This document shows positions 2-38,968 of a stretch of DNA of 64,000 bases, piece after piece (within the stretch, counting starts at the first letter, position 1; each line of letters starts with the position of its first letter). Below the pieces are notes generated by a model, which had not been told where the DNA came from, did no database searches, and worked only from the letters and a program-made list of their open reading frames with translations. This stretch comes from Spirochaetota bacterium (GTDB taxonomy: Bacteria; Spirochaetota; UBA4802; UBA5550). A program made the translations under genes and the position numbers. The stretch spans positions 1,696,001 to 1,760,000 of the forward strand of contig CAXXHB010000003.1 in NCBI GenBank assembly GCA_963664815.2. The letters run 5' to 3'.

Positions 2-253
2 GAGCCGGTAATAGACCTCTTATCACAACAAGGGATTCAGGATTTTAACAGCAAAGCGACTGAAAAAGCAGGTATAGATACTTGCAATCACTTCTTTAAA
101 CGCTACATAGACTATTCCGGAGCAATTCCCAACATGAAGCCTGATGATTTGAGAAAGCTGAAGACTGGAATGAAAATTGAGCTTAACACAATGGCCTCGG
201 CAAAAAATGTTTACGAATTTGCCGGAATAAAAAAGGTGGCACACAATGTCTGA
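2..253 (+). CDS. Partial (5'-truncated) hypothetical protein, coupled to the downstream FliN-FliG fusion
   Basis: Frame open from position 2 (EPVIDLLSQQGIQDF...EFAGIKKVAHNV) to TGA at 251-253, overlapping the ATG at 246 (ATGTCTGA). Not in the ORF track because the start lies outside the window. Confidence 0.65.
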   Translation, partial: EPVIDLLSQQGIQDFNSKATEKAGIDTCNHFFKRYIDYSGAIPNMKPDDLRKLKTGMKIELNTMASAKNVYEFAGIKKVAHNV

Positions 254-2312
254 TGGACCGTTGAGCCAGGAAGAGATTGATGCCCTGCTTCAGGGAGCCG
301 GCTCTGTTCTCAAATCTGAGAAAAAAACGGAAGTGAGCGCTGTATCAGAGAATGAACCTGAAGAAAAAGGGGATTTTGATGAATTTCCGTTAACTGATAA
401 TGATACGTTTGAAGAACCGTCGGGCATGAAAAACTGTTCAAAAACTGAGGCACCGCAGGAAGCTGCATCGAGGTTGATTCATATCAGAAGTGAACAACTT
501 TACACCGGGAAACTTACTGTAAGAGAATCATTCAGCAATAAACTGATATCTTATCTGAACGGGAATGGTAAAAAGGCTTTGAAGAGTAAATACCTGTCAA
601 CATTTTACAATGATATTCTTGATCCTGATGAAAAGAAATTTATATCCGGAGATGATTATGGTGATGAGTATGACGGCAGTGTTATGAAAGGGATATTGAA
701 GAGAATCAGGAACTCAATAACTGGGGTTAATAAATTGGTTCCAGATGTATCCTGCGGATATGAGTTGAATCTTGAAAAATTCAGATTCCCTGTAACTGTA
801 AGGGTTGAAGCAGGTACCGTTGTGTATAATGAAATAATCAGGGGAGAAGACCAGGTTCCTGTTTCAGATATATCGGGAAGAAAGGCGTTACTTGTTATTG
901 GAGATATGGAGATCGGAAGCGGGAAGATATCCGCAAAAGATGGCAAAGTGGCATTTATTGAGCTTACTGATACTGTCATGAACAGCAGATCAGGAGCTTT
1001 GCCGTTGACAGATTTGCTTCACGAATACCGCTTTAATATATCGGTTGAGGTGGGGAGAAAGAGTATCCACCCGCTTGAAGCGGAGGAGATTTATAATGGA
1101 ACAGCACTTGTTTTTGATAAATACGCGGGAGAACATCTTGATGTAATTCTTGAAGATTATGATCTGGTTATTGCAAAGGGGGAGGCATGCATTCTTGGTG
1201 AAGTGACGGCTGTACGAATTACAGAAATGGTAAATATTAACCTGCCCGGAGTTCTTAATGGGGAATATGAGAAGAAGAGAGATATCGGGCCGGAGGCTAT
1301 TGTTCCCGTACGATTCGTTTACGGAAGAAGAAAAATGACAATTAAGGAAGTTATTGGTCTTGGAGAGGGGAGTGTTTTGGAACTGGACAGAATATTCCTG
1401 GTTCCTGCCGAGCTTATGTTCGGGGATGAACCGGCAACACGGGCAGAGCTAATTGTTGTTGATGGAAAGCTTGGTGCAAGGGTTCCGGTAGCAAGATTGA
1501 AAAATCTGTATGGTAATAAGCCTGTGAAATCCGTACTGGAATCCTCCTGTGAAAGAGAAGATGTGTCGGTTGGTGAAACTACCGGGCAGGATTATACTTC
1601 TGGAATGGATGGAGCAGATAAACCCTTCAGCTTTTTCAACGAAAACAATATTGAGCATACATTATCAGTTCTTGAAAACGAACATCCTCAGACAATAGCG
1701 CTTGTTCTGTCATATCTTGAAGCTAAACATTGTGCTATGATTCTCTCGTATCTTCCACCTGAAGTCCGTATTGCTGTTACCCGGAGAATTGCATGTATGA
1801 GGGGAGTTTCTGTAACAGTGATCGAGGATTTGGAAAAAGTGCTTCGAAAAAAGCTTTCAAGGATATCATCAGATAGATATCTTTATTCCGGGGGACTTGA
1901 CCATACCATTGAAATAATTAAAAATACCGATCATGGTATGGAAAAGTCTCTTATTGAGGGTCTTGAAGAGACAGATCCACAAACAGCAGCGGAGATAAAA
2001 AATGGAATGTTTTTATTTGAAGATATTGTATTTCTTGAAGACAGATCCGTACAGAAGGTGCTTAGAGAAGTAGATACTCAGGATCTTGTAAAAGCGCTCA
2101 GGGGAGCCAGTAAGGATGTGCATGAGAAAATATTCAGAAATATGTCAAAACGTGCAGTCAGTCTTATAAAAGAGGATATGGATTTCATGGGATCGATTCT
2201 TCTGATAGATGTTCAGAATGCTCAGGAAAAAATAATAAAAATCATTGGAAAACTGAAGGATTCCGGAGAAATATTAGTTCTTCGTCCGGGGGAAGATTAT
2301 CTGGCAAAGTAA
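246..2312 (+). CDS. Flagellar switch-like fusion protein: FliM/FliY N-terminal peptide + 3 SPOA (FliN-like) domains + FliG middle and C-terminal domains
   Basis: N-terminal LSQEEIDALL; SPOA-like segments at about aa 179-242 (degenerate), 261-329 and 353-413 (VEVGRK...GT/GS.L.FD/LD...GE...AVRITE); FliG motifs EHPQ (aa 479), GG linker, MFLFEDI (aa 588) and NMSKRAVSLIKED. Confidence 0.85.
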   Translation: MSDGPLSQEEIDALLQGAGSVLKSEKKTEVSAVSENEPEEKGDFDEFPLTDNDTFEEPSGMKNCSKTEAPQEAASRLIHIRSEQLYTGKLTVRESFSNKLISYLNGNGKKALKSKYLSTFYNDILDPDEKKFISGDDYGDEYDGSVMKGILKRIRNSITGVNKLVPDVSCGYELNLEKFRFPVTVRVEAGTVVYNEIIRGEDQVPVSDISGRKALLVIGDMEIGSGKISAKDGKVAFIELTDTVMNSRSGALPLTDLLHEYRFNISVEVGRKSIHPLEAEEIYNGTALVFDKYAGEHLDVILEDYDLVIAKGEACILGEVTAVRITEMVNINLPGVLNGEYEKKRDIGPEAIVPVRFVYGRRKMTIKEVIGLGEGSVLELDRIFLVPAELMFGDEPATRAELIVVDGKLGARVPVARLKNLYGNKPVKSVLESSCEREDVSVGETTGQDYTSGMDGADKPFSFFNENNIEHTLSVLENEHPQTIALVLSYLEAKHCAMILSYLPPEVRIAVTRRIACMRGVSVTVIEDLEKVLRKKLSRISSDRYLYSGGLDHTIEIIKNTDHGMEKSLIEGLEETDPQTAAEIKNGMFLFEDIVFLEDRSVQKVLREVDTQDLVKALRGASKDVHEKIFRNMSKRAVSLIKEDMDFMGSILLIDVQNAQEKIIKIIGKLKDSGEILVLRPGEDYLAK

Positions 2313-2331: not shown

Positions 2332-2976
2332 ATGGAACTGATAGACTTTACAGGGATATACCAGACAGGCGGAAAGTTTTTAAAATTTACCGGTTATAGT
2401 GAGCTGGCTGACAAATTGACCGGTATCAGCGAGAAAACCAGGAAAGAGGGATTGCTGGCTATTGAAGATGACCTGGAATATATGGATAATATAATGATGA
2501 AAAAGCAGTTTCAGCTGGTTGTAGATGGAACCGATCCGGAGATTGTTAAAAATATAGGTTCACTGCGGCTCTGTAATCTGCTTTATACCTTGAAGGAGAT
2601 TCTTGCATGTGCAGAATTCACGCTTTTCATGGATGCTGAAATGGAATTTGAATTATATCTGGCAAGTCGTGATGCAGCTTCCAGTGCGGTTCTTATAAAA
2701 GAGATGAGAGAGCAGATACTTTTTCTCAGAAAAGGGAATGAACAGGGAATTGAACTTCCTGAAAGGTTCAGAGCTGTTATTGATACGGTAAACTCCGGTA
2801 TTGACTGTGAAATAAAAAAGAATATTATAGAAAACCACATATGTTCAATACTTAATATAAACAGAATATATAATGAGGTCATAATAGCTGGTGTATTGGG
2901 AGTTCAGGCAGGTGACAACCCCTCGGTTCTCAGGGAGAAGCTTGATGCGATAACAGGTAATATCATTCAGGCATAA
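2332..2976 (+). CDS. MotA-like protein consisting only of cytoplasmic elements (no transmembrane helices)
   Basis: KTRKEGLLAIED, QLVVDGTDPEIV and C-terminal IIAGVLGVQAGDNPSVLREKL are MotA/PomA cytoplasmic motifs. No 18-20 aa uncharged hydrophobic stretch. RBS AAGGA upstream. Confidence 0.75.
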   Translation: MELIDFTGIYQTGGKFLKFTGYSELADKLTGISEKTRKEGLLAIEDDLEYMDNIMMKKQFQLVVDGTDPEIVKNIGSLRLCNLLYTLKEILACAEFTLFMDAEMEFELYLASRDAASSAVLIKEMREQILFLRKGNEQGIELPERFRAVIDTVNSGIDCEIKKNIIENHICSILNINRIYNEVIIAGVLGVQAGDNPSVLREKLDAITGNIIQA

Positions 2977-2981
2977 ATTAC

Positions 2982-3533
2982 TCAATCGAACATAACGTAA
3001 CTCACGGAAGACTCAATTTTTTTCTCTATCTCTTTTCTCTTTAATTTGAGATTTTCGAATTCACTTCGTGCTTCAGAGGTTTTTATCTTCTGCATAAGGA
3101 CGTCGCCAGTGTGTGTGTAGAAAAAAATTTTTCTTGAATTATATCCTCCGAAGTTGTAATTAACTATTGGTATTTTTTCTGTAATGAGAAAATCAACAAC
3201 CATTTCGACGTTTTTCAGCCCCATGGCCAGTTCATGGCTCATGGAGGGAAGCAGCTGAGCACCGCCGAAAATCTTTGCCTTTAGCCTGTATCTGTTCGTT
3301 CCGAGTTTCATCAACTGGTTTATAAGAAGCTCCATTGCATTGATTGCGTATCTTGCATCTCCCGGAGTTGATTTGCCTGATTTCTCTTCAGGGAGTAGTA
3401 TATGATTCATTCCCCCAGTTTTGCTGTATGGCTCAAAAAGACACACAGCAACACATGGACCGAGAATTGTTGTTATAACGGCAGGCTCTGCCGAGGAATA
3501 GTACTCGCCTATATGTATATTTATATTCTTCAT
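2982..3533 (-). CDS. cheD: Chemoreceptor glutamine deamidase CheD
   Basis: IHIGEYY...TILGPCVAVCL...GGMNHILLP...AKIFGGA...KN motifs; catalytic Cys/His present. Confidence 0.92.
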   Translation of the reverse strand: MKNINIHIGEYYSSAEPAVITTILGPCVAVCLFEPYSKTGGMNHILLPEEKSGKSTPGDARYAINAMELLINQLMKLGTNRYRLKAKIFGGAQLLPSMSHELAMGLKNVEMVVDFLITEKIPIVNYNFGGYNSRKIFFYTHTGDVLMQKIKTSEARSEFENLKLKRKEIEKKIESSVSYVMFD

Positions 3534-3577
3534 TTCAATCTCATAAATAATATAGAAAATTGACTCATATATTAGGA

Positions 3578-3616
3578 TAACACGATTGTGTTAGTTTTTT
3601 TAGCACGACTATGTCA
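3578..3616. promoter_or_regulatory. Tandem pair of 16-bp palindromic operator-like sites (consensus TAACACGATCGTGTTA) between cheD and the NarL-type gene
   Basis: TAACACGATTGTGTTA at 3578-3593 and TAGCACGACTATGTCA at 3601-3616; the same motif pair recurs at 4425-4462. Confidence 0.65.
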
Positions 3617-3679
3617 TTGACTGACAGAAAGCATATGGTAATTTAATATCAATTCTTTTTGTTTTCCTTAAGAGGTATT

Positions 3680-4360
3680 ATGGAAAAAATTGTTATTGTT
3701 GATGACCACCCGGTTATTATAAATGGCCTTCGCGTTATTCTTGAGGAAAGCGGCCGTTATACCGTCACAGGTGAAGCCTTAAACGCAGAAGAGGCTATGA
3801 TGATACTTAATAAGGTTAGTGCTGATCTGATGATAATTGATGTAGAGCTTGGATGCGGATTAAACGGTATTGAACTTGTGAAGAAAATTTGCAAAGATTA
3901 TCCCGAAATAAGGATGCTGGTTATGTCAATGGATGACGGGGCTCTATATGCCGAGAGGGCATTAAAGGCCGGCGCGAAAGGATTTATATCCAAGGTTAAT
4001 GTGGCGGATGATATTTTTACGGCGATTGAAACTGTTAAAAAAGGTCAAATATATCTCAGCAGTGAGGTCTGCAATATAATAGCAGGTAATTATTTCAGAA
4101 ACTATATTAACCCGGTTGTGGATAATGATATGGCCAGCCTTACCGACCGTGAACTTGAGGTTTTTCAGCTTATTGGAAGAGGATATAAAAGGATGGAGAT
4201 AGCAGAAAGGTTGAATATAAGTGTAAGTACATTTGAGGCCCACAGGCGTAAAATAAGGAAAAAAATGAGCATAGAGACATCCTCGGAGCTTATTAAAACA
4301 GCAATTAAACACGAAGCTGAGCGATTTCATATCCAGCCATTATCTGAACCACGGCTGTAG
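3680..4360 (+). CDS. NarL/FixJ-family DNA-binding response regulator
   Basis: IVIVDDHPV receiver domain, phosphoacceptor D in IIDVEL, LuxR HTH LTDRELEVFQLIGRG...IAERL. ATG at 3680 after GAGG is preferred over TTG at 3659. Confidence 0.92.
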   Translation: MEKIVIVDDHPVIINGLRVILEESGRYTVTGEALNAEEAMMILNKVSADLMIIDVELGCGLNGIELVKKICKDYPEIRMLVMSMDDGALYAERALKAGAKGFISKVNVADDIFTAIETVKKGQIYLSSEVCNIIAGNYFRNYINPVVDNDMASLTDRELEVFQLIGRGYKRMEIAERLNISVSTFEAHRRKIRKKMSIETSSELIKTAIKHEAERFHIQPLSEPRL

Positions 4361-4424
4361 ACTGTATCTAAATTTGATAAATATGACAATTTAATTATTC
4401 CCTGATTTCCGGTATTATCCCCCC

Positions 4425-4462
4425 TAACACGAACATGTTATATCATTGTCACGATCGTGTTA
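4425..4462. promoter_or_regulatory. Second tandem pair of the TAACACGATCGTGTTA operator-like palindrome, upstream of the che operon
   Basis: TAACACGAACATGTTA at 4425-4440 and TGTCACGATCGTGTTA at 4447-4462. Confidence 0.65.
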
Positions 4463-4680
4463 TCTTTAAAAACATTTAGGTGTTATTGCCGGAGATTCAT
4501 ATTTCTATATTTTAATATTAAGTATAAGAAATTATCTCAGAGTAAAATTCCCAATAAAGCAGGGCAGGAGATAGTTGAACGTATAGCAAAAACAGCAAAA
4601 GAACTCGTCATAATTTTTTAATGTGTATAAACATTTCATTGAATACGAAATCGATGAAATGCAGGGGAGATGATAAGGTT

Positions 4681-5286
4681 ATGGCATTTACATACTTTTT
4701 CAGGGATATGCAGACCCTTGAGATGATAAGGGATTACGCAATACCAGTGCTGAGGACCAAGAGATATATAAATGTATGGGATGCAGGATGTGCCATGGGG
4801 CCTGAACCTTATTCACTTGCTATTATACTCAGGGAAAACATGGGGAACATGATTTTCAGAAATGTAAGAATATATGCCACTGATATAGACGGGAGTAATC
4901 TTTTTCAGGAGATTATAGAATCCGGGGAATACCCGAGGGAACAACTGGACAGAATTCCGTCAGATATATTCAACAGGTATTTTTCTAAAGTGGATGATGG
5001 TGAAAAATACAGGATATCGGAAGACATAATCAGATGCCTGCATTTTATAAGGCACGATCTTCTCTCACTTCATCCGGTAAAGAATGATTTCAGTATGGTT
5101 TTATGCAAGAATGTTCTGCTTCACTTTAAACATGAAGAGAGAGTTAAGGTTATAAAGATGTTTCATGAAAATCTTCTAGAAGGGGGATTCTTTGTTACTG
5201 AACAGACCCAGAAGATGCCTGAGGAACTGGATGGTTTTTTTGAACAAGTAGTATCTAATGCACAGGTGTACAGAAAGGTCGGATAA
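4681..5286 (+). CDS. cheR: Short CheR-type methyltransferase (catalytic domain only)
   Basis: Begins MAFTYFFRD; VWDAGCAMGPEPYSLAI, IYATDID, HDLL and LCKNVLLHF motifs; lacks the N-terminal all-alpha CheR domain. Confidence 0.85.
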   Translation: MAFTYFFRDMQTLEMIRDYAIPVLRTKRYINVWDAGCAMGPEPYSLAIILRENMGNMIFRNVRIYATDIDGSNLFQEIIESGEYPREQLDRIPSDIFNRYFSKVDDGEKYRISEDIIRCLHFIRHDLLSLHPVKNDFSMVLCKNVLLHFKHEERVKVIKMFHENLLEGGFFVTEQTQKMPEELDGFFEQVVSNAQVYRKVG

Positions 5287-5894
5287 TGAGAGCGGATAAT
5301 GTGAAAATATATAATCTCACTGAAAACAGTAAAGTTTATACATCAAATGTTTATCTTATAACAGGAACTTGGAACAGGATTGATGATGTTAATGCACTTA
5401 TTGATGTCGGACGTGATCTTTCTATACTTGAAATGATTCTTGAAATCCCCACCGGCGTTGGTAAAAAACAGGTTGAGAAAGTAGTAATTACTCACAACCA
5501 TTACGATCACACATCAATGCTTCCAAATGTGAAAAAAGTATTTAATTCCAGGGTATGTGCTTTTTCAAATTCAATAGCTGGAGTAGATCGCATACTGAGA
5601 GACGGAGACATGATAAAACTTGGAGACAGGTTATTTGAGGTTATACACACACCTGGTCACAGTAGTGATTCAATATGTCTCTATAACATGGATGATGGTG
5701 CTCTTTTTTCTGGAGATACATCTCTTGTTATACGTAACACTGAATCATACTATGATGATGAATTTATCAGAGCTGTGGAAAAACTGTGCAGACGTGATGT
5801 GCAAATAATATATCCGGGGCATGGAGAAACTATTCGTGAAAAGTGTAATGATAAGATAAGGGAATCATTGAAAAACCTGAGGAAAAATAATTAA
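5286..5894 (+). CDS. MBL-fold metallo-hydrolase
   Basis: THNHYDH, HTPGHSSDS, LFSGD and YPGHG motifs; TAATG overlap with the upstream cheR. Confidence 0.9.
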   Translation: MRADNVKIYNLTENSKVYTSNVYLITGTWNRIDDVNALIDVGRDLSILEMILEIPTGVGKKQVEKVVITHNHYDHTSMLPNVKKVFNSRVCAFSNSIAGVDRILRDGDMIKLGDRLFEVIHTPGHSSDSICLYNMDDGALFSGDTSLVIRNTESYYDDEFIRAVEKLCRRDVQIIYPGHGETIREKCNDKIRESLKNLRKNN

Positions 5895-5999
5895 ACGAAA
5901 TTTATGTTTATCTTATCAGTGGAATTGAACCGGGTATAATGTTATAATCCGGATTTTAATAATTTATTTTATACAATATAGTGCAATGAGGAGGATGTA

Positions 6000-8291
6000 A
6001 TGTTCAGGAATATGAAACTTGGTATTAAAATTCTTACAGGATTTACAGTTCTCACTTTTCTTATAATAGGTGTTGGGGTAATTGGAATTGTTAACATCAG
6101 GCAAATTAATAGCGCAGATACAAAACTATATGAAAAAATGACTCTGCCGCTGGGTGATCTTGGACAGGCGGGAATGGACTTCCACCGTATAAGGGTTAAC
6201 CTCAGGGACGCTATATCGTCAACCAGTATATCTGACAGAGATAATTTTATAAAGAGAGTGGAAGAGCTTGGAAAAGATATGATTAATAATCTTGATGATT
6301 ATGAGAAAACAATACTTACAGATGAAGGAAGGCGGCAGTTTACTGAAATGAAAAAATCCATTGATGATTACACTATTCAGCAGAATGAAATGATACGGTT
6401 AATAAAGGATAATAAAAATGCAGAAGCCTCAGTTATTCTTTATGGTGAGGGCGGGAAATGTGCAAGAAAAATAATTGATCTTGTTGACAAGATGTATGAA
6501 CTGAAGACTTCCATGGCCAAAAAAACATCAGACGAAAATACAGTGCTGGCAAATTCATCTGTGACATTAATGATGATTTTAATTATATTTGCCGCTGTTT
6601 TTTCAGCAATACTAACTTTTGTACTTACCGGAAACATAAAAAAAATTATTAAAAATCTTCTGGATGAAGCCGGGCGTCTTGTTGATGCTGCGGTAAACGG
6701 TAAACTCGATATAAGGGCTGATCCGCAGAAGATAAATTTTGAATTCAGAGATATAGTGGTTGGAGTAAACAATACTCTTGATGCGGTAATAGGACCATTG
6801 AATGTAGCAGCCGAATATGTGGAAAGAATTTCTAGAGGAGATATTCCGCCTAAGATTTCTGATACTTATCATGGAGACTTTAATGAGATAAAGAATAACC
6901 TCAATATGTGTATCGATGCAGTAAATCTGCTTGTGAATGATGCCGGCATGCTCTCAAAAGCTGCAGTTCAAGGGAAACTGGATACCCGTGCAGATGCGAG
7001 CAGACACCAGGGGGACTTCGCAGCGATAGTGAAGGGTGTAAATGATACACTTGATGCGGTAATAGGCCCGCTGAATGTTGCAGCAGAGTATGTTGAGAGG
7101 ATCTCTAAAGGTGATATCCCGCCGAAAATTACTGACAGCTACAATGGAGATTTTAATGAAATTAAGAATAATATAAATATTCTTACCGATGCCATGAACA
7201 AAATTACTGATGTTTCCCAGGAGATTGCAGGAGGAAACCTTATGATTCAGGTGGAGGAAAGGTCGGCACAGGATAAACTGATGATTGCTCTTAAAAAAAT
7301 GGTTAGTGATCTGACGTCAATAGCAGTCGATGTTCAGACAGCGGCCAACCAGGTTGCAACAGGGAGTGGTGAAATGAGCTCATCTGCAGAGGAGATGGCG
7401 CAGAGTGCCAATGAACAGTCCGCCAGTGTTGAGCAGGTGTCCAGCTCAATGGAGGAAATGAACAGTTCGGTTATTCAGAATGCCGATAACGCAAAACAGA
7501 CAGCTGCGATTTCAGACAAGGCGGCGAAAGATGCAAGGGATGGAGGAACCGCCGTTGCTGAAACTGTAAAGGCAATGAAGAGTATAGCGGAAAAGATTTC
7601 CGTAATTGAAGATATAGCAGCACAGACCAATATGCTTGCGCTTAATGCTGCAATTGAGGCAGCCAGGGCGGGCGAACATGGGAAGGGTTTTGCCGTGGTT
7701 GCGGGAGAAGTAAGGACATTGGCAGAGAGGAGCGGCAACGCGGCCAAAGAGATAAATAATCTTTCAATGCAGAGTGTTGAGGTTGCAGAACGTGCGGGAA
7801 AACTCATCGAGGATATAGTACCTCAGATACAAAAGACAGCAGAACTGGTGCAGGAGATAAATGTGTCAAGCTCGGAACAGGCTAACGGAATTGCTCAGGT
7901 AACTCAGGCTGTTGAACAGCTTGATAAAGGGATACAGCAGAGTGCAACTGCAACTGAAGAGATGGCATCAACTACAGAGGAGCTTCTTGGACAGGCGGAA
8001 CAGTTGCAGCGGGCAGCATCATTCTTTAAAGTAAAAGATAATCAGTTTGATGCTGGAGGTGGTAATGGTAACGGAAGACATCCCGGCAGGGAGCATTACA
8101 TTCCCGATAAACGTCAAGGGAAAGCAGGTATTTCAAAGATTTTAAACAGGCAGAATAAACAGATCGAACCTGTCAACAAAGGTTCTGAATTGGAGGCAGT
8201 TAAAAAAAGCTATGGCAACAATGATGTAATAACTGCAGCAGGTGGTGTTGATATAAATCTTGCAAGTGACAGTGAATTTGAAAGATATTAA
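6000..8291 (+). CDS. Methyl-accepting chemotaxis protein with periplasmic helical-bundle sensor and poly-HAMP array
   Basis: Two TM segments; repeated HAMP units; signalling tip [34 protein letters not shown]; C-terminal pentapeptide EFERY; RBS GAGGAGG. Confidence 0.95.
6770..7175 (+). repeat. Intragenic tandem duplication of HAMP units in the MCP
   Basis: [42 protein letters not shown] and [42 protein letters not shown], about 276 nt apart. Confidence 0.8.
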
Positions 8292-8300
8292 AATTCTGTG

Positions 8301-9203
8301 ATGGAGTTGAACATGCTGACAGGAACCGGAGTAAAAACAGATATATCCGTGATGAACAGTGAAACAGTAATGTCAGAGAAGGAGTTTGCGCTTTTCAGCA
8401 GCATGATATATTCAGGAACGGGGATTAAAATGCCCCCTGTAAAAAAACTGATGCTTACTTCAAGACTGATTAAAAGGATGAAGCTGCTTGAAATAAAATC
8501 TTTTAAGCAATATTATGAGTATGTGTGCAGTCCTGAAGGAAAGGTAAATGAATATTTCAGAATGATAGATGCTGTAACAACAAACAAAACCGATTTTTTC
8601 AGAGAGAACGCGCATTTTGAAATTCTTGTAAACATGGTACTGCCGGAGTTGTCCGCCAAGGAAAAATTTGTTAAGGGAAATCCGGTAAATATATGGAGTG
8701 CGGGATGTTCTACGGGAGAGGAGCCTTATACAATTGCTATGGTAACATCGGACTTTTTCAGTAGAGAAAGAATGAAAGGTAAAGAACCTGTTTCGATCCT
8801 TGCAACAGATATTTCTACAAAGGTACTTAATTCTGCAGTTAATGCTGTATATTCAGAAGATTCAATCAAGCCTGTACCGCATACTTTGAGAAAAAAATAT
8901 CTGCTCCGGGGGAAAGGAGAAAAACAGGGGATGTTCCGGATTGCACCGGAGATAAGAAAAATGGTAAATTTCAAAAAACTTAATCTTATGGATGAAAGGT
9001 TTAATCTTGATGTGGAGATAGATATAGTGTTCTGCAGAAACGTGATTATATATTTTGACAGAGATACCCAGAGGGAACTTTTCAACAGGTTTTATGATGT
9101 TATTTCACCCGGTGGTTATCTTTTTATCGGGAGTTCAGAAACACTTCAGGGACTTAATGACAGGTTTGTCCCGGCGGGACCGACTGTCTACAGGAAGCTG
9201 TGA
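8301..9203 (+). CDS. cheR: Chemotaxis methyltransferase CheR (full length)
   Basis: TTNKTDFFRE, IWSAGCSTGEEPYTIAM, ATDIS, FCRNVIIYF and GYLFIGSSE motifs. Confidence 0.95.
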   Translation: MELNMLTGTGVKTDISVMNSETVMSEKEFALFSSMIYSGTGIKMPPVKKLMLTSRLIKRMKLLEIKSFKQYYEYVCSPEGKVNEYFRMIDAVTTNKTDFFRENAHFEILVNMVLPELSAKEKFVKGNPVNIWSAGCSTGEEPYTIAMVTSDFFSRERMKGKEPVSILATDISTKVLNSAVNAVYSEDSIKPVPHTLRKKYLLRGKGEKQGMFRIAPEIRKMVNFKKLNLMDERFNLDVEIDIVFCRNVIIYFDRDTQRELFNRFYDVISPGGYLFIGSSETLQGLNDRFVPAGPTVYRKL

Positions 9204-9242
9204 ATATAAATGGAATCTGTATGTAAATGACCGGGAGAGATT

Positions 9243-10319
9243 ATGGAGAGGAAGATAAAGGTGCTTGTTGTTGATGATTCGGCTGTTGTAAGAAAGGCAA
9301 TGACCGAAATACTTGAATCAGATCCTTCAATTGAAGTAATTGATACTGCTTCAGATCCATATATTGCCGTGGAGAAAATAAGAAAAGTGATCCCTGATGT
9401 TATAACACTTGATGTTGAGATGCCGAGAATGGATGGAGTAACATTTCTTCACCGGATTATGAGTCAGCATCCCATACCGGTGGTGATGTGCTCAAGTCTG
9501 ACTGAAGAGGGTGCCGAAACAACGCTCAGAGCACTTGATTATGGTGCGGTTGATATTATAACAAAACCTAAAATGGGAGTGCAGAAGTTTCTGGAGGAAT
9601 CACAGATAAGGATATGCGATTCTGTAAAAGCGGCGTCACAGGCAAAACTTAAAATACTTACTGCGGGGAAAAAGCATCATCGGACGACGGAAAAACTCAC
9701 AGCTGATGTAATTCTAGCACCGCCCACAGGCAAGTCAATGCTGAGAACAACGGAGAAGATTATTGTAGTAGGGGCATCAACTGGCGGTACAGAAGCATTG
9801 CGTATATTTCTTGAAAGTATGCCGCAGGATGCGCCCGGAATAGTTATAGTGCAGCATATGCCGGAGAATTTCACCAAGGCTTTCGCCAAACGCTTAGACG
9901 GTATATGCAGTATTGGAGTGAAGGAGGCAGAAGACGGAGATACAATAATCCGGGGTAGGGCGTTGATTGCTCCTGGTAATAAACATATGCTGATTAAAAG
10001 AAGCGGGGCGCGCTACTATGTGGAGATCAAAGATGGTCCGCTGGTGTCGCGCCACAGGCCGTCTGTTGATGTACTGTTCAGGTCGGCGGCTGAGTATGCT
10101 GGTGTAAATACGGTCGGTGTTATAATGACAGGAATGGGCGATGACGGCGCAAGGGGGATGCTAGAGATGAAACATGCCGGAGCATTTAACATAGCACAGG
10201 ATGAGAAAAGCTGTGTTGTATTCGGCATGCCTAATGAGGCCATTAAACTTGGTGCTGTTGATTCTGTGCTGCCGTTACTGTCTATAGCGGGGAGTGTACT
10301 TAAAGAGTGCTTGAAATAA
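9243..10319 (+). CDS. cheB: Chemotaxis methylesterase CheB (receiver + esterase)
   Basis: [11 protein letters not shown] receiver; [20 protein letters not shown] and MTGMGDDGA. Confidence 0.97.
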
Positions 10320-10337
10320 AAAAAATGGAGTGAAATT

Positions 10338-10880
10338 ATGGGTGAAACGATAAACTGTATAAGCCCGGATAATAATATCAATTATTCATATGGAACAAAC
10401 TCCGAGACAAAACAAGAAGGAACAGATAGTGTTAAGCTTTATTTTACATTTAAAATAAGGAATGATCTTTTCGGAATACCGGTAAATACAATAAGGGAGG
10501 TTTTGAAATATACAAAAGTATTCAGAACTCCGAGAGTACCTGGTTATATCAAGGGTGTTATAAATCTGCGTGGAGAGGTTGTACCCGTGATAAATCTTCC
10601 CTGCAGGTTTTATGATATGGAAAGCGGGATAACGGAGAATACATCAATAATAATAATTGAGATTACAGAAAATGATGAAAAAATACCAGTGGGGGTTATG
10701 ATCGATTCAGTAAGAGAGGTCACTGAACTTAGCGATGAAAGCATTGAATCTACTCCGGAGGTCGGTAACAGGATAAAGCCGGATTATATCGAAGGGATTG
10801 GAAAGGTTAATGGAGAGTTTGCTATTCTGCTTAAAATTGAAAAGGTTTTGAAGATAGATGAGCTTTCAGATTTTAACTGA
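10338..10880 (+). CDS. cheW: CheW coupling protein
   Basis: IREV...PRVPGYIKGVINLRGEVVPVINL...GVMIDSVREV. Confidence 0.95.
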   Translation: MGETINCISPDNNINYSYGTNSETKQEGTDSVKLYFTFKIRNDLFGIPVNTIREVLKYTKVFRTPRVPGYIKGVINLRGEVVPVINLPCRFYDMESGITENTSIIIIEITENDEKIPVGVMIDSVREVTELSDESIESTPEVGNRIKPDYIEGIGKVNGEFAILLKIEKVLKIDELSDFN

Positions 10881-11055
10881 CAGGAAGTTATAATATTTTG
10901 AAGTTGTCACATAATGTTTGAGTGGAGAGATATATTTATTTTTCAATAAACAGTTTGTGAAGTGAATTTTTATTTATTAGTGGAAGATAAAATATATAAG
11001 TTAAAACAATTATTGTGAGTGTAGGCATAAAGAATTATTAATAGGGAGGATTCTT

Positions 11056-11424
11056 ATGGCAAAGAAGGTTATGGTGATTGATGATTCAAATGCTATCAGA
11101 CAGTCACTTGTTTATACGTTAAAAAGCGCCGGTTATGATGCAATCGAAGCTTCTAACGGTGCTGTAGCGCTTGATCTTATGAAACAGTGTTCAATAGGCC
11201 TTTTTATTTCAGATGTGAATATGCCTGAGATGGACGGGATTACACTGTTAAGAAAAATCAAGGAGGATTCTTCTTATAAACATACGCCGGTTATCATGCT
11301 CACAACAGAGTCATCATCTGATATGATTGAGTCGGGGAAAAAAGCGGGTGCAAAAGCGTGGATTATAAAACCTTTCCAGCCGGAACAGCTTCTCGATGCT
11401 GTTAAAAAACTTTTTGTAAACTGA
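11056..11424 (+). CDS. cheY: CheY-like single-domain response regulator
   Basis: VMVIDDS...SDVNMPEMDG...MLTTES...WIIKPF; lies upstream of STAS-cheA. Confidence 0.92.
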   Translation: MAKKVMVIDDSNAIRQSLVYTLKSAGYDAIEASNGAVALDLMKQCSIGLFISDVNMPEMDGITLLRKIKEDSSYKHTPVIMLTTESSSDMIESGKKAGAKAWIIKPFQPEQLLDAVKKLFVN

Positions 11425-11450
11425 TTCATTTCAGAGATGGAGAAGCGGTT

Positions 11451-11744
11451 ATGAAACTGAGTATAGAAAAGAAGAAAAATGAAAACAATATAGTTTCAAT
11501 GATTATGAAAGGGGAACTGACAGTCTATACAGTTGTGAAGCTTAAGGATATTATCATTAAGGAACTTAACTCTTTTTCAGGGATGGTGTTGAATCTTGCC
11601 GGTATTGATGAGGCTGATTCTGCAGGATTCCAGTTTCTCATTTTTATAAAGCGTGAGGCAGAAAAATCAGGCAAGAGTCTGGTTATAGACAATGCAAGCG
11701 GAAGGATAAAATCAATTTTCTCTCTTTATAATGAGAATCTTTAA
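11451..11744 (+). CDS. STAS-domain protein
   Basis: GELTVYTV...LNLAGIDEADSAGFQFL motif; typical position between cheY and cheA. Confidence 0.85.
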   Translation: MKLSIEKKKNENNIVSMIMKGELTVYTVVKLKDIIIKELNSFSGMVLNLAGIDEADSAGFQFLIFIKREAEKSGKSLVIDNASGRIKSIFSLYNENL

Positions 11745-11758
11745 TCGGGGGTCTCGGG

Positions 11759-13930
11759 ATGTCTATCAGCAGCAGTGACAAAAATTTTAAGAAAGAATAT
11801 TTTACCGAGAGCAGGGAGCTGCTTGATGCAATGGAAATGTCACTTCTGGCTCTTGAGAAAAATAATAAAGATGAGGATTCAATAAATTCAATTTTCAGGA
11901 GCGTTCATACTATCAAGGGGAACTCCGGAATGTTCGGATATGAAAAGATCGGTGAGTTCACGCATCTCCTTGAAAATATACTTGTATGTGTCAGAAGTGG
12001 AAAACTTGACATGAACGGTGATCTGACTGTGATTTTTCTTGAATGCCATGATTTTATAATGAACATGATAGATTTTTTTGAGGATAATAATAATCAAAAG
12101 CTTGATGAAATGAATGAAAAGATTTTCAACGAAATTGCAGGAAGACTGAATTCTTATATTGAAATGCATGATTGTATTCCGGTTGCAGAGAGAGAAGAAT
12201 ATGTTCAGGAGATAACTTCCTGCGTTGATGATGACACGAAAGTCTGTAATGATTGCTGGCATATATCGCTCAGGTTTGGTGAGAGAGTTTTCCAGGACGG
12301 GCTTGATCCGTATTCGTTCATAAGATACCTTGCTGAAAAAGGTGATATAGAAAATATGAGAACTGTCTGTGACCGTATACCAGACGCAGATCATATGAAT
12401 CCGGAGATATGTTATCTTGGTTTTGAAATTGATTTTAAAAGTTCCATAACTAAAAGCGAAATAGAGAATGTTTTCGAATTCGTCAGAGAAGACTGCGAGA
12501 TAAGAATCCTTCCGCCGTTTACAAGCATCTCGGAGTATGTGAAGCTGATAGAAGCCCTGCCGGAAACAAATATGCGGATCGGTGAAATGCTGAAAGAGAT
12601 CGGGTCACTTACCTCGTCTGAACTTGTTCTGGCACTTCAGCTGCAGAGTCTTAACAGCAGTGATTCATTTGATGAAACTGATAAACAGTTTGTAGGGAAA
12701 ATACTTGTAAATGAGAAAATGATTCAGAAGCCGGTACTCGAAGCAGCACTTGAAAAACAGCAGACGGTAAGAAGGAGGGAGGAGAGTGACCGCAAAACAA
12801 TCCGTGTTGAAGCCGGAAAGCTTGATAAACTGATTAACCTGATTGGTGAACTTGTGATAACCGGATCAAACGTAAAGCAGATATCTGAATCGGATGAAAA
12901 AGCCGGTCTCGTAAAAGCTGTCAATGATATGTCGAAGCTTATCGAAGAAATACGCGGAAGTTCAATGGGGATCAGGATGGTACAGATAGGTGAAACTTTC
13001 AGCAGGTTTGAGCGTGTTGTAAGGGATTTGAGCAGGGAGAGGGGCAAAAGAATAAACTTTGTTATTATGGGCGGAGATACTGAACTTGATAAAACTCTGA
13101 TAGATAAATTGTCAGATCCTCTTATACACCTTGTAAGGAACTCTGTTGATCATGGAATAGGGACTCCGGAGGAGAGAACTGCAAACGGAAAATCTGCTGT
13201 CGGTACACTTACACTGAACGCATATCATGAAACCGGGAGTATCGTAATAGAAGTGAAAGATGACGGACACGGGCTGGATAAAGAGAAGATACTTGGAAAG
13301 GCTATTGAACTGGGACTTGCCAAACCTGACCAGGTATATCAGGATTTTGAAATACACCAGTTCATATTTCAGCCCGGATTCTCAACGGCGGCTGAGGTTA
13401 CGAATATTTCCGGCCGCGGCGTTGGTATGGATGTTGTAAAAAGAAATATTGAGTCTCTGCGTGGTAATGTGATGATAGAAAGTGAGACCGGTATGGGTAC
13501 AACAATACGAATACATCTCCCGCTTACACTGGCAATCATAGATGGTTTTATGGTAAGGATTGCCGATTCTTATTATGTTCTGCCGCTGGATATGGTAACT
13601 GAATGTACAGAGGTACATAAAGACGAACTGGAATCAAGAGAGGGGGGTAATTACATAAACCTGCGTGGAGATGTTCTACCTTTTATGAAAATGCGTGAAT
13701 TTTTCATGGAGACAGGTGAAGAACCTGTAAAACATAAGGTTGTAGTTGTAGAACATGCGAGAAGGAGAGTGGGACTCATTGTGGATGAACTTGTCGGTGA
13801 ATTCCAGACGGTTATAAAACCGATGGGAAAAATATTCAGTAGTCTGCAGTGGGCAAGCGGATCAACGATACTTGGTACCGGAGAGGTAGCTTATATTCTT
13901 GATATACCGAAACTTATACAGACGGAATAA
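11759..13930 (+). CDS. cheA: Chemotaxis histidine kinase CheA
   Basis: Hpt IFRSVHTIKGNS; dimerisation domain KLDKLINLIGELVI; HLVRNSVDHG; GFSTA...SGRGVGMDVV; C-terminal CheW-like domain. Confidence 0.97.
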   Translation: MSISSSDKNFKKEYFTESRELLDAMEMSLLALEKNNKDEDSINSIFRSVHTIKGNSGMFGYEKIGEFTHLLENILVCVRSGKLDMNGDLTVIFLECHDFIMNMIDFFEDNNNQKLDEMNEKIFNEIAGRLNSYIEMHDCIPVAEREEYVQEITSCVDDDTKVCNDCWHISLRFGERVFQDGLDPYSFIRYLAEKGDIENMRTVCDRIPDADHMNPEICYLGFEIDFKSSITKSEIENVFEFVREDCEIRILPPFTSISEYVKLIEALPETNMRIGEMLKEIGSLTSSELVLALQLQSLNSSDSFDETDKQFVGKILVNEKMIQKPVLEAALEKQQTVRRREESDRKTIRVEAGKLDKLINLIGELVITGSNVKQISESDEKAGLVKAVNDMSKLIEEIRGSSMGIRMVQIGETFSRFERVVRDLSRERGKRINFVIMGGDTELDKTLIDKLSDPLIHLVRNSVDHGIGTPEERTANGKSAVGTLTLNAYHETGSIVIEVKDDGHGLDKEKILGKAIELGLAKPDQVYQDFEIHQFIFQPGFSTAAEVTNISGRGVGMDVVKRNIESLRGNVMIESETGMGTTIRIHLPLTLAIIDGFMVRIADSYYVLPLDMVTECTEVHKDELESREGGNYINLRGDVLPFMKMREFFMETGEEPVKHKVVVVEHARRRVGLIVDELVGEFQTVIKPMGKIFSSLQWASGSTILGTGEVAYILDIPKLIQTE

Positions 13931-27448: not shown

Positions 27449-27819
27449 CCTGACTAATGTGGATTAAAGTTGATATGCTGATCACAGCAGAAAATCAACT
27501 GATTAAAGATCTCTCTGACATCATCATTTCATCGAGATGAAAAGATAATGTTTTAATTAATAAAATATAAATATTACAAAATAAATAAATAAATAAAGAC
27601 CGTCGTATATTTGTCATACGTGGGAAACAGTACATTTCATTACATTTTTTGCCCCTTCATTGCTATATTATAATACACTTCCGTTTACATAAATTTCTGT
27701 ATAATGGTAATTGTTTAAAAATTATAAATATTATATTTTAAACGAAAATAATTTTATGTGCATACGGCTTCAGCTTGTATAAAAATCTGTTATGTCGTAT
27801 CAATTATATGGAGGAATTT

Positions 27820-29172
27820 ATGTCTGGAATGGCACTTATCAGAGAACGAAAAACAAAATATTACAGCACATGGCAGGAGGAATATCAGGCAAAGCTTACA
27901 TCAGCAGAAGAAGCGGCAAAGGTGGTCCAGTCGGGGGAGAGTATTTTTTTCGGAGGAGGAACCGGAATACCAACGGCATTTGCAACTGCATTGGGGAAAC
28001 GTGCTGATGAACTTGAAAATATAACAATTTCACAGGGATATGCAATGGGACTTTTTGATTACATGAAGCCGGAGAATAAGGAAAGATTTCAGATTGAAAC
28101 GATGTTTGTAGGTCCGATGGAAAGAATATGCATGCAGTGGGGAGTTGCACAGTACAAACCTATGCATTTAAGTGATATACCTGCTGCAGCGCTCCATGCA
28201 AACTGCAGACGTGTTGCTTTCGTGGCAACACCTCCTGATGAAAACGGTTATATGAACAGGTCCTGTTTCGGATCTTTCCTGCCGAATGAGGAATGTGTTA
28301 AACCTGCCGATACAATAATTGTCGAAGTAAACCGCAATGCGCCCAGACTTAACAGCGATGATTTCAAGATACACGTGTCGGATGTTGATTTTATTATTGA
28401 AAACGATTTCCCGTTGTTTGAACTTCCGGATATCCCGATAATGGACGAGGAGAAAAAAATAGCAGAATATATTGCGGATCTTGTTCCGGATGGTTCCTGT
28501 ATACAGATAGGTCTGGGAGGTCTTGCAAATGCGGTAGGATACCTTCTCCATGAGAAAAAAGATCTCGGGATGCATGCTGAGGTTGTTACCCCATCTGTCG
28601 CAGAACTTGTTAAAGCCGGGGTAATTAACGGTTTACGTAAGAATTTTATGCCAGGAAAGGTTGTCAGCGCATTTGCTGTAGGTACAAAAAAGTTTTATAA
28701 TGAAATACATAATAATGACAGCTTTTATTTCAAGGAAGTTGGCTGGGTTAATAATCCTGACATTATAGGACTTAACGATAACCTTGTATCTATAAACAAT
28801 ACATTGATGGTAGACCTTACTGGACAAGCCGCATCGGAGTCAATTGGAATCATGCAGTATAGTGCAACCGGAGGTCAGCTTGATTTCATTCTTGGTGCCA
28901 GAAAATCCAGAGGGGGCAAGAGTATCCTGTCTCTCAATTCAACATATACCGATAAGAACGGAAAACTACAGACTAAAATCATGCCAACTTTTCCAGCAGG
29001 TACGATTGTAACAACACCAAGAACTCTCGTAGAGTATATTATTACTGAATATGGAGTAGCAAATTTAAGGCTCAGAACTGTTAAGGAGAGAGCAAAATCT
29101 CTTATTGGTATTTCACATCCGGAGTTCAGGGATCAGCTGACTTTTGAAGCGAAGAAAAACGGATGGCTGTAA
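27820..29172 (+). CDS. Acetyl-CoA hydrolase/4-hydroxybutyrate CoA-transferase family protein
   Basis: IQIGLGG, LGMHAE (catalytic Glu), VDLTGQAASESIG, GGQLDF, TEYG. ATG at 27820 after GGAGG. Confidence 0.9.
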   Translation: MSGMALIRERKTKYYSTWQEEYQAKLTSAEEAAKVVQSGESIFFGGGTGIPTAFATALGKRADELENITISQGYAMGLFDYMKPENKERFQIETMFVGPMERICMQWGVAQYKPMHLSDIPAAALHANCRRVAFVATPPDENGYMNRSCFGSFLPNEECVKPADTIIVEVNRNAPRLNSDDFKIHVSDVDFIIENDFPLFELPDIPIMDEEKKIAEYIADLVPDGSCIQIGLGGLANAVGYLLHEKKDLGMHAEVVTPSVAELVKAGVINGLRKNFMPGKVVSAFAVGTKKFYNEIHNNDSFYFKEVGWVNNPDIIGLNDNLVSINNTLMVDLTGQAASESIGIMQYSATGGQLDFILGARKSRGGKSILSLNSTYTDKNGKLQTKIMPTFPAGTIVTTPRTLVEYIITEYGVANLRLRTVKERAKSLIGISHPEFRDQLTFEAKKNGWL

Positions 29173-29222
29173 TGATCAATTCCTGGTAAAACCCGCCAGA
29201 TTTCACAAAGATATTATTATTT

Positions 29223-29265
29223 CTGTATAAATAAACCCGAAATAACAGTGGGTTTATTTATACAG
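29223..29265. terminator. Long stem-loop after the CoA-transferase gene
   Basis: CTGTATAAATAAACCC / GGGTTTATTTATACAG, perfect 16-bp stem with 11-nt loop. Confidence 0.6.
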
Positions 29266-29502
29266 GCATGCATTAAACATGAGATGTGATTAAATTAAAA
29301 ACTTTCAAATAAGATAGATAATAATATATGATAATCACAGGTTATTAAAACAACCATTTATACGCAAAAAAATATGTAAATAAGAATAAATTTCTTTTAA
29401 AGCGATTGACTGGAATATTAATATAATTATATATTACTAATGAAAAATCTGGAGTTTCTTAAAATCTGATATTCACTGAAAAACTATTTATGAGGTTATT
29501 AT

Positions 29503-30606
29503 ATGAAGAGAATAGCGCTGGTATTATCATTGTTACTTATATTTACTGTAGCTGCGTTTCCTAAAGCTTCAAAAAAAGCTGTAAAAAATCCAGCCAATAG
29601 TCCCTGTGTTAAAGGGAAATGTACTAATGGACAGGGAACAATGAAATATAGTGATGGCACTGTTTATACGGGTGATTTTAAAGATCAGAAGTATGAGGGG
29701 ACAGGAGTACTCGTCAAAGCGGATGGTACAAAATATGAAGGGGAGTTTAAAAACGGAGTTTATGACGGGAAAGGAACTCTTGCCAGGTCTGATGGGACGA
29801 AGTATGCAGGCGAATTTAAAGATGGTAAATTTAACGGGAAAGGTACCCTGACAATTCGGGACGGATCTCAGTTTATCGGTGAATTTATCAATGATAAATA
29901 TGAGGGAAAGGATATTATTGCTGCAGAAAATGGATCGCTGTATGTTGGTGAAACAAAAGATGGCAAATACGAAGGTAAAGGTTCGCTTGTACAGGCTGAC
30001 GGGAACAAGTATACGGGTGATTTCAAAGAAGGTGTATTCAGTGGTGAGGGTACACTCATAAAGAAAGATGGTACACAATATGCGGGAACATTCGTTAACG
30101 GTAAAGCTGAAGGAAAAGGAGTCGTGACAACTTCTGACGGTAAAAAGCTTGAAGGTCTTTTTAAGGATGGACAGATAGAAGGGAAAGGCATTCTTTCTAC
30201 AGCATCAGGTGTTAAGTTTGAAGGGGATTTTAAAGGCGGCAAGGTTACCGGTTCCGGAGTTATGTTATGGCCAAACGGAGCAAAATATGAAGGAGGCTAT
30301 GCCGATGATTATCGTGACGGCAAAGGTACATATTCATTTTCAAACGGTGATTTCTATTCAGGCGGTTATATGCTGAACATAAAAAACGGTACCGGCGAAT
30401 ATAAATGGAAAGACGGTGATGCATACAGCGGAGGCTGGAAAGATGGTCTCATGGATGGCAATGGTGTATATATATGGTCAGATGGAGTTCAGTATTCCGG
30501 GGAGTGGAAAGCCGGAAAAATTAATGGCAGAGGGAAATTAACCTGGCCAGACAAGAAACGGCTGGAAGGTACATTTGAAAATAACAAACTGATCAAAGCA
30601 AATTAG
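29503..30606 (+). CDS. Exported MORN-repeat protein
   Basis: Signal peptide; C..G.C.NG.G cap; about 14 repeats of the DG..Y.G.FKDG...G.G type. Confidence 0.92.
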   Translation: MKRIALVLSLLLIFTVAAFPKASKKAVKNPANSPCVKGKCTNGQGTMKYSDGTVYTGDFKDQKYEGTGVLVKADGTKYEGEFKNGVYDGKGTLARSDGTKYAGEFKDGKFNGKGTLTIRDGSQFIGEFINDKYEGKDIIAAENGSLYVGETKDGKYEGKGSLVQADGNKYTGDFKEGVFSGEGTLIKKDGTQYAGTFVNGKAEGKGVVTTSDGKKLEGLFKDGQIEGKGILSTASGVKFEGDFKGGKVTGSGVMLWPNGAKYEGGYADDYRDGKGTYSFSNGDFYSGGYMLNIKNGTGEYKWKDGDAYSGGWKDGLMDGNGVYIWSDGVQYSGEWKAGKINGRGKLTWPDKKRLEGTFENNKLIKAN

Positions 30607-30633
30607 ATAAAATCACATCAGTTATAAAGATTG

Positions 30634-30661
30634 AAACCCCTGGAAAATTCAGGGGTTTTTT
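30634..30661 (+). terminator. Rho-independent terminator
   Basis: AAACCCCTG-GAAAATT-CAGGGGTTT followed by a T-run. Confidence 0.75.
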
Positions 30662-30775
30662 ATATCCGGGATGAGTTAAAAATGAGCCTCATATATAAAA
30701 ATATCCCGGATGGATATCATTGCATAATACATCCGGGATTGGTGAATTCATTCAGTTGTTTATTCTTTTTATAAT

Positions 30776-32113: not shown

Positions 32114-32115
32114 CT

Positions 32116-33489: not shown

Positions 33490-33574
33490 TTCGTATCTCC
33501 TTTCTGAAATTTATTCGAGAAATCACATTTTTGCTTCCAGTTTCAGGAGAGTTATTTTTATATTCAGAAAATAA

Positions 33575-35428: not shown

Positions 35429-35536
35429 TTTAATTCACCTCAATATTTCAGTATTATAATTATCCGGAATTAAACATAATTCCGGACTGGACAATTATGA
35501 CAACAGCGCCATTTATGGCAATGGGTAAGTATGATT

Positions 35537-38889: not shown

Positions 38890-38968
38890 AATAGAGCCTT
38901 TTTCACTTTAAAAAAGTTAAGGAATAAATGCTGATAAAAAAAATAATTTTTCAGGGGTGAATCTAAAA

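Follow-up and report, generated by a model that had tools for sequence, protein, structure and literature searches.

Can the parts of a flagellar switch be joined in one polypeptide that has lost its tie to the membrane, and what could such a protein do? This question is raised by a gene near the beginning of a 64,000-nucleotide stretch of DNA from a Spirochaetota bacterium (GenBank assembly GCA_963664815.2, contig CAXXHB010000003.1, positions 1,696,001 to 1,760,000 of the forward strand), which we call the window. The gene (246..2312, forward strand) is one uninterrupted open reading frame (ORF) for a protein of 688 amino acids (aa), in which a FliY-type peptide, three SPOA domains, and the middle and C-terminal domains of FliG follow one another, and which we call the fusion. 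A FliM-like gene precedes it and a MotA-like gene follows it. The three genes probably represent a membrane-detached copy of one building block of the cytoplasmic ring (C-ring) of the motor, together with a soluble stator face. We propose, more tentatively, that this module acts as an accessory modulator of the normal spirochaete motor.

Domain order of the fusion protein

An earlier note on this DNA had proposed the order EIDAL peptide, unassigned region, three SPOA domains, and FliG middle and C-terminal domains. The ORF, the motifs, and the Pfam matches together show that this order is real. The motifs run from LSQEEIDALL (aa 6-15) through EHPQ (479-482), GG (549-550), and MFLFED (588-593) to a torque helix of the form KR..ED (635-647) and GSIL (649-652), and Pfam profiles matched FliMN_C in two stretches (E 7e-19), FliG_M at 473-542 (E 1.7e-23), and FliG_C at 572-676 (E 7.2e-36). 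The absence of a CheC-like or FliM middle domain, also stated in the note, was borne out, because profiles of the FliY and FliM middle domains gave zero matches in the fusion. Both linkers had been called acidic; this is true of the first (15 D/E against 6 K/R), but the second is just mildly so (8 against 5).

The fusion begins with a FliY-type peptide (246..296, aa 1-17) containing EIDAL, the presumed binding site of phosphorylated CheY (CheY-P), and this peptide is near-identical to the start of the ORF that follows fliM in loci L020 and L024, the spirochaete FliY. A four-helix domain (519..722, aa 92-159), SPOA1 (777..974, aa 178-243), SPOA2 (1026..1235, aa 261-330), and SPOA3 (1302..1487, aa 353-414, with the best Pfam FliMN_C stretch at 353-413) come next. 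The FliG middle domain with EHPQ, the FliM-binding face, occupies 1620..1880 (aa 459-545), and the GG linker, the MFxF hinge, and the FliG C domain with its torque helix occupy 1881..2312 (aa 546-688), all on the forward strand.

Automatic annotation would name this protein FliG and hide the fusion, because it scores 250.9 bits on the NCBIfam fliG model (TIGR00207, cutoff 226.7), in which only profile positions 110-334 are matched. It stays below the cutoffs of the models for SctQ (TIGR02551, 36.1 against 100.8), FliY (NF005995, 57.1 against 218), and FliN (TIGR02480, 71.5 against 84.05). The base composition of the gene is like that of the rest of the window, the protein lacks a membrane-length hydrophobic stretch (maximum 19-residue hydropathy 1.3), and a scan for promoters and terminators at the locus gave results at chance level.

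The best solved relative of the fusion is the middle plus C-terminal part of Thermotoga FliG (E 1.3e-59), and in the model described below FliG_M superposes on 4FQ0 chain C (Z 13.1, root-mean-square deviation (rmsd) 1.3 A, 80 residues) and FliG_C on 1QC7 (Z 17.0, rmsd 0.9 A, 89 residues). The primary torque charges of E. coli FliG (R281, D288, D289) are present as R636, E643, and D644, with a spacing that agrees with the E. coli numbering in PMC6079164, and R619 is also kept. The earlier note had pointed to the loss of the arginine of the GPxR motif, equivalent to R297; the loss is true of this protein, which has L652, but it is not a family trait, since R is found in 17 of 27 aligned members. 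Because R297 is of secondary importance (PMC6079164), its loss says little, and we rejected it as a mark of special function. A weak FliG_N match at 481-560 was set aside as a cross-match since it overlaps FliG_M, and a profile of native spirochaete FliG_N gave zero matches in the fusion.

Two further features of the ORF were observed. TTG codons at 999 and 1005 lie in frame before SPOA2 and after a purine-rich stretch; the site (999-1007) is a candidate internal start, comparable to those of SctQ and T. maritima fliY, and one of nine such sites in the gene. There is also a run of six A at 1995-2000. The database protein P0001 is identical to the fusion for 585 residues and stops at 591 aa; its sequence results exactly if a single A is added to this run, with loss of the entire torque domain. 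The frameshift is either a sequencing error or slippage. The database cluster of P0001 contains 3 member sequences.

SPOA domains and a probable FliM paralogue upstream

We modelled the fusion with AlphaFold from an alignment of 27 family sequences (mean predicted local distance difference test score, pLDDT, 73.7; predicted template modelling score, pTM, 0.38). A model from the single sequence was discarded (pLDDT 31). The retained model contains the four-helix domain (92-159), then a beta-alpha-beta domain of lower certainty (183-243), and after it two SPOA domains modelled with confidence and the two FliG domains.

SPOA2 and SPOA3 are FliN/FliY-like and unambiguous, with profile-profile matches to the FliY SPOA domain at E 1.8e-28 and 1.3e-24. 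In the model they lie against each other, and as one unit (aa 261-416) they superpose on the FliM(SPOA)::FliN fusion 4YXC (Z 15.9, rmsd 3.4 A, 136 residues) and on 4YXB (Z 15.4, rmsd 3.5 A, 140 residues). SPOA2 and SPOA3 are thus predicted to pair within the same chain, which would leave the degenerate SPOA1 as the free one.

Support for SPOA1 as the third SPOA segment is weaker. Its profile matches that of SPOA2 over 66 columns (E 2.8e-4, probability 41%) and that of the divergent SPOA of certain FliM-FliG fusions (E 1.6e-4; see below). Its modelled elements follow the beta-alpha-beta order at pLDDT of about 45-83, and in a structure search of 48,161 chains the only rows among the top 50 that were confined to its range were three SPOA chains of type III secretion systems (T3SS), at a weak Z of 4.0-4.4. 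With a leave-one-out profile, SPOA1 exceeded the best control score (8.4 bits among 7954 sequences) in 22 of 27 members; it was missed in P0080, P0099, P0118 (which starts inside SPOA2), P0186, and P0211. We therefore assign SPOA1 as a degenerate SPOA domain with moderate confidence.

The region before SPOA1 had been called unassigned. It indeed belongs to no known family, but it is a conserved and confidently modelled four-helix domain (pLDDT about 84-95), also found in P0002, P0042, P0053, P0060, P0080, and P0093. Pfam gave zero matches to it at E up to 5, the structure search with the whole protein yielded only generic matches to helical proteins (Z no higher than 5.2), and its best Atlas score was 0.83, with a hint of FliM (0.81) below the reliable range. 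As these structural matches come from the whole-protein model, we claim no new fold.

We then asked what could complete the odd number of SPOA domains. The gene directly upstream enters the window at its edge, and its C-terminal 83 aa (2..253, forward strand) comprise what looks like the last helix of a FliM middle domain and a shortened SPOA domain. A profile was built from the corresponding segment of 5 relatives that carry FliM in cis, and this end scored 22.5 bits on it (best of 2000 shuffles, 12.6). Its best pairwise match among 8157 sequences was P0113 (251-286, E 0.007), and the set aligned to native spirochaete FliM at E 1.8e-5. From the helix to the stop there are 83 aa, against 121 in two native FliM. 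By sequence, the upstream gene therefore looks like a FliM paralogue. Its stop overlaps the start of the fusion by 8 nucleotides, and native fliM and fliY overlap by 4 in the two loci showing both, so that a FliM-like gene overlapping the fusion mirrors the fliM-fliY arrangement.

One SPOA domain of the FliM paralogue and three of the fusion would give the dimer-of-dimers block of the C-ring. The earlier note had suggested that an odd SPOA is left free to pair between chains or with native FliM/FliN. The model does leave SPOA1 unpaired, but the number is most simply completed to four by the FliM paralogue, upstream here or in cis in 6 of 28 members, and this paralogue probably also supplies the EHPQ partner that had seemed to be missing. 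Because the upstream SPOA is shortened, self-pairing of SPOA1 and pairing with native FliM/FliN are possible alternatives.

Missing membrane links and a family of related fusions

The usual link of native FliG to the MS ring is its co-folding with FliF (PMC6946799). FliG_N is absent from 16 of the 28 members of the family, including the fusion, and kept in the other 12. The 46 residues that precede FliG_N in these 12 members match, when aligned as a set, the C-terminal tails of FliF (probability 87.7%, score 27.0), with control scores of at most 14.9 in 60 shuffles and at most 16.4 in 12 other sequence windows. The family thus appears to delete the FliF site or to cap it itself, and no member appears to need the MS ring. 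Since FliG_N is absent or self-capped, the incorporation into the C-ring proposed in the earlier note cannot go through FliF. The gene order differs as well. The gene directly upstream of the fusion is FliM-like and not fliF, whereas 41 of 47 native fliG loci have a long gene at this place, which is FliF by position and tail sequence. The FliG paralogues P0034, P0070, and P0116 carry at their start an evident copy of the C-terminal tail of FliF (19-40 bits).

The third gene (2332..2976, forward strand, 214 aa) starts 19 nucleotides after the fusion and encodes a MotA-like protein without membrane helices. It gave partial matches to the NCBIfam MotA/PomA models and matches in the PDB (E 6.5e-10), and it consists of the two cytoplasmic parts of MotA. 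In its best-matching stretch it retains both torque residues, R37 and E45, with the spacing of the rotor-facing MotA pair R90/E98, and it also keeps the C-terminal cytoplasmic helix. Its maximum hydropathy is 1.26, whereas three native spirochaete MotA proteins each show four peaks of 1.6-2.6. The next gene is cheD on the opposite strand, and motB is not there. The available part of a MotAB survey (PMC12505986) mentions no soluble form. Membrane-less MotA repeats are fused to FliG middle and C-terminal domains in four of 232 fetched proteins (P0120, P0228, P0140, P0143), with up to about five repeats, and in one of them also with TPR repeats; P0091 resembles them by eye only. Judged from their sequences, these fusions hint independently at a joint use of a MotA-like domain and FliG.

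The domain-architecture search suggested in the earlier note was carried out, and it found the layout of three SPOA domains plus FliG in 27 other proteins, which is a lower bound. A search with the full length gave 32 matches among 8000 candidates, with one clear full homologue, P0002. Among proteins of 378-1204 aa, the FliG part used as query had 61 matches, of which 11 were SPOA-FliG proteins (one a shortened copy of the fusion) and 6 were FliM-FliG proteins. A profile of 11 members was then run against 1.84 billion representatives, and the best 150 of 3842 matches (E <=1e-30) yielded 17 further members. Split forms were absent from 554 candidates when proteins of 30-377 aa were searched with aa 88-330. 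No family member was among the stretches listed by two scans of genome DNA for relatives: one matched 19 stretches, and in the other the 80 listed of 595 stretches (550 confirmed) were all ordinary spirochaete fliG.

Identity to the fusion is 22-42% across 26 aligned members, and the linker between SPOA2 and SPOA3 is 16-25 aa long in 26 of 27. An EIDAL-type peptide is present in 13 of 28 members, and a FliM middle domain is present in the same chain in 6 of 28, in five of them above the Pfam cutoff. A FliY CheC-like domain had been seen by eye in four relatives; by profile it held for P0186 only (16.0 bits; shuffle maximum 5.2), with marginal scores for P0093 (7.6 bits) and P0060 (6.9 bits) and 1.2 for P0002. 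All 27 of 27 members keep the E of EHPQ and 26 of 27 keep its Q; MFxF and GG hardly vary, and the equivalents of R281, D288, and D289 are unchanged or conservatively replaced in most members.

The native FliG nearest to the family is spirochaetal, as is the FliY whose start the N-terminal 17 residues nearly match, and these two likenesses suggest a spirochaete host. The FliG part of the family is nearest to operon-encoded FliG (54% to that of L068). FliG parts of members are 33-74% identical to the best of seven native FliG, which are 80-91% identical among themselves; such strong divergence is expected of accessory paralogues. A quick tree of FliG middle plus C-terminal domains was made from 98 rows (26 of the family, 22 of 80 loci, and 43 plain FliG, with P0113 and P0215 left out because they lack FliG_C). 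It left 56 of 94 inner branches open, and the family needs five changes on it, at least two of them forced by the starred branches. This would agree with the resident fliG having been copied repeatedly, or with noise from long branches, and the tree does not decide whether the FliG part arose once. P0215 carries a FapA-like beta-solenoid at its end in place of FliG_C, and P0075 carries an EIDAL-type peptide at its C-terminus.

A second type of fusion (P0003, P0063, P0078, P0081, P0084, P0085, P0086) has a full FliM middle domain, a divergent SPOA with a Pfam trace in three of the seven, and the FliG middle and C-terminal domains, again without FliG_N. It is possible that these proteins are partners of the three-SPOA type.

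Beyond the three genes, the window contains a chemotaxis cluster at 2982-13930, consisting of cheD (reverse strand), a LuxR-type regulator, cheR, a metallo-beta-lactamase-fold protein, a methyl-accepting chemotaxis protein, cheR, cheB, cheW, cheY (11056-11424), a STAS protein, and cheA; the second cheR, cheB, cheW, cheY, and cheA were named from their sequence and not by profile scan. The order cheY-STAS-cheA is reminiscent of the F8 class. Three acetyl-CoA hydrolase/transferase paralogues, two acyl-CoA dehydrogenases, and a MORN-repeat protein are clustered at 27775-36784. A short ORF at 37973-38344 (reverse strand) begins like MerR and continues as the C-terminal portion of a short-chain dehydrogenase; it is probably what a rearrangement left behind. 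ORFs of 312 aa (38957-39895, forward) and 933 aa (41145-43946, reverse) had no Pfam match above the cutoff.

Possible roles and known systems

The arrangement would be explained if the spirochaete fliM-fliY pair, fliG, and motA had been duplicated and rearranged into these three genes, with the loss of all membrane anchors. The FliM paralogue encoded upstream would contact EHPQ through its middle domain and SPOA1 through its shortened SPOA, so that two chains (one in some relatives) would make a pre-assembled FliG:FliM:3xFliN block; the 1:3 dimer of dimers of FliM and FliN is a known block (PMC4832279, PMC11087270). This block might attach to the native C-ring through self-associating FliG and SPOA surfaces. 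The EIDAL peptide, a motif that binds CheY (PMC6946799), could read CheY-P, and the block would then change stator engagement or switching bias, while soluble MotA could sit on the FliG torque helices as a stator decoy, acting as brake or clutch. EHPQ and the main torque charges are kept in the fusion, nothing in it can bind FliF, and the MotA copy is soluble. There is precedent in FliG1 of Borrelia, which according to a review is dispensable for flagellar synthesis and asymmetrically localised (PMC7225975), and the FliG paralogues of T. pallidum interact with each other in two-hybrid tests (PMC1943423).

Several observations weigh against this picture. The upstream SPOA falls short of the native length by about 38 aa and can be aligned over its first part only, so that it may not complete a dimer, and the middle domain of its gene lies beyond the window. 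The pairing of SPOA2 with SPOA3 comes from one model built on 27 sequences with a pTM of 0.38, which may follow the solved structures. SPOA1 matches the FliY SPOA only at E 0.08 and native FliM at E 0.01 over 11 columns. The FliF-tail match holds for the set of 12, with single members scoring at most 1.6 bits on the native profile. The EIDAL peptide occurs in only 13 of 28 members, some members have lost torque charges (22 of 27 have R or K at the position of R281), the family does not come out as a single clade in the FliG tree, and the gene context comes from this one locus.

We also considered whether the module could work away from the motor. Blocks of FliM paralogue and fusion, or SPOA1-SPOA1 dimers, would then form free arcs or spirals in the cytoplasm that serve as a CheY-P sink or cooperative switch with soluble MotA as read-out. 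Removal or capping of every membrane link would suit this idea, as would the adjoining chemotaxis cluster with cheY and cheA and the elongated arrays made in vitro by the equivalent 1:2 complex of Spa33 (PMC4832279), and the coordination of spirochaete motors over 10 um is an open matter (PMC7225975, section 4.3). However, besides soluble MotA no output partner was identified, contact with real stators explains the kept torque charges more simply, cheD on the opposite strand makes the chemotaxis cluster adjacent but not co-transcribed, and 15 of 28 members are without the EIDAL peptide; we regard the idea as somewhat unlikely. A particular form of it, in which fused blocks polymerise without a membrane ring, flip on CheY-P by conformational spread, and are read by soluble MotA, seems improbable to us. 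If true, it would mean that the rotor-stator interface has been reused for signalling, and it might serve to coordinate the motors of the two cell poles or to bias them.

It is also rather unlikely, by a similar judgement, that these proteins are drifting duplicates, produced by shuffling of fli and mot segments in spirochaetes, which fold and do little. Their long branches and scattered placement among native FliG, their variable N-termini, the many rearranged FliG fusions (FliM-FliG, FliF tail-FliG, MotA repeats-FliG, TPR-FliG), the small database clusters (1-4 member sequences), and the otherwise identical, frameshifted P0001 would all be expected from drift. Yet the three-SPOA order recurs with similar linkers across proteins 22-42% identical to the fusion, SPOA1 has a conserved signature of its own, EHPQ, MFxF, and GG are near-invariant, and the base composition matches the rest of the window. 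A working switch, in which the fusion replaces separate FliG, FliM, and FliN in the normal or a second motor, would account for the passed fliG cutoff, the primary torque residues, and the fliM-fliY-like gene order. We consider it very improbable, since a protein without FliG_N cannot co-fold with FliF (for this role of co-folding, PMC6946799), the gene is outside a fliF-fliG operon, unlike the 41 of 47 native loci with a long gene upstream, it is far more diverged than native FliG, and the MotA next to it is without membrane helices and is not followed by motB. Finally, P0001, 100% identical but cut short at 591 aa by an additional A in the six-A run, shows that slippage or errors of sequence do arise at this locus, and it might suggest that an assembly or frameshift error joined fliY, fliN, and fliG. 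This is hardly credible, because the frame is open for 688 codons, the same layout occurs in 27 independent proteins, and there was no split form among the 554 short candidates.

The modulator reading therefore remains the one we favour, tentatively as before. Switch proteins are usually viewed as separate and anchored by FliF; here they are fused, and the membrane link is removed in two ways. Some relatives look like a whole C-ring protomer in one chain, with a FliM middle domain, a SPOA remnant, three SPOA domains, and FliG. The family, which is consistent with the 1:3 SPOA block, offers a ready-made single-chain construct for structural and switching studies. It suggests that parts of the motor have given rise to a class of motor modulators not recognised so far, membrane-less MotA included, and it provides a testable candidate for the means by which spirochaetes produce asymmetric rotation and coordinate it between poles that lie far apart. 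All parts except the four-helix domain are known, and the family is seemingly undescribed: neither SPOA-FliG fusions nor membrane-less MotA were described in the full-text literature searched, which left most subscription papers and supplements outside its scope, and the fusion is not among the FliG/FliY paralogues described there.

The fusion resembles a C-ring protomer, yet on defining features it is not a FliG, a FliY, a FliM, or an SctQ. A close likeness is to the enteric protomer FliG:FliM:FliN3 of Salmonella (PMC11087270), which has the same domain inventory if the upstream FliM-like gene is counted, and the likeness extends to the SPOA pair of 4YXB/4YXC and to the FliG middle and C-terminal folds. 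This locus differs in having fused parts, no FliG_N/FliF link, degenerate SPOA domains in SPOA1 and in FliM, an extra four-helix domain, and a soluble MotA partner. As for FliM, its CheC-like middle domain is absent from the fusion chain and found in cis in 6 of 28 relatives. FliY of spirochaetes, Bacillota, and Campylobacter (PMC6946799) shares the near-identical EIDAL peptide, the position after a fliM-like gene, and FliY/FliN-like SPOA domains, but the fusion has no CheC-like domain, contains three internal SPOA domains instead of one terminal one, and carries FliG.

In the T3SS protein SctQ (Spa33, SpaO, YscQ; PMC4832279) two SPOA domains of one chain form an intramolecular pseudodimer, as is modelled here for SPOA2 and SPOA3. 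SctQ is a natural FliM-FliN-like fusion with two SPOA domains, the other two coming from an internal start, whereas the present protein has three together with FliG and the EIDAL peptide; no injectisome genes were found among the window proteins scanned. The second FliG of spirochaetes (Borrelia FliG1, T. pallidum FliG-1; PMC7225975, PMC1943423) is an accessory paralogue, as proposed here for the fusion, dispensable for building the flagellum and linked to polar asymmetry. These are stand-alone homologues, however, for which the available parts of the two papers mention no SPOA fusion, and T. pallidum FliG-1 binds FliF in two-hybrid tests.

The proposed role also invites comparison with flagellar brakes and clutches. 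EpsE and MotI are brakes or clutches of this kind, soluble proteins whose site of action is the interface between FliG and MotA. YcgR, another of them, has MotA and FliG as its targets (PMC10140304). Such brakes and clutches use unrelated folds and cyclic di-GMP, whereas the candidate modulators described here would be copies of FliG and MotA themselves.

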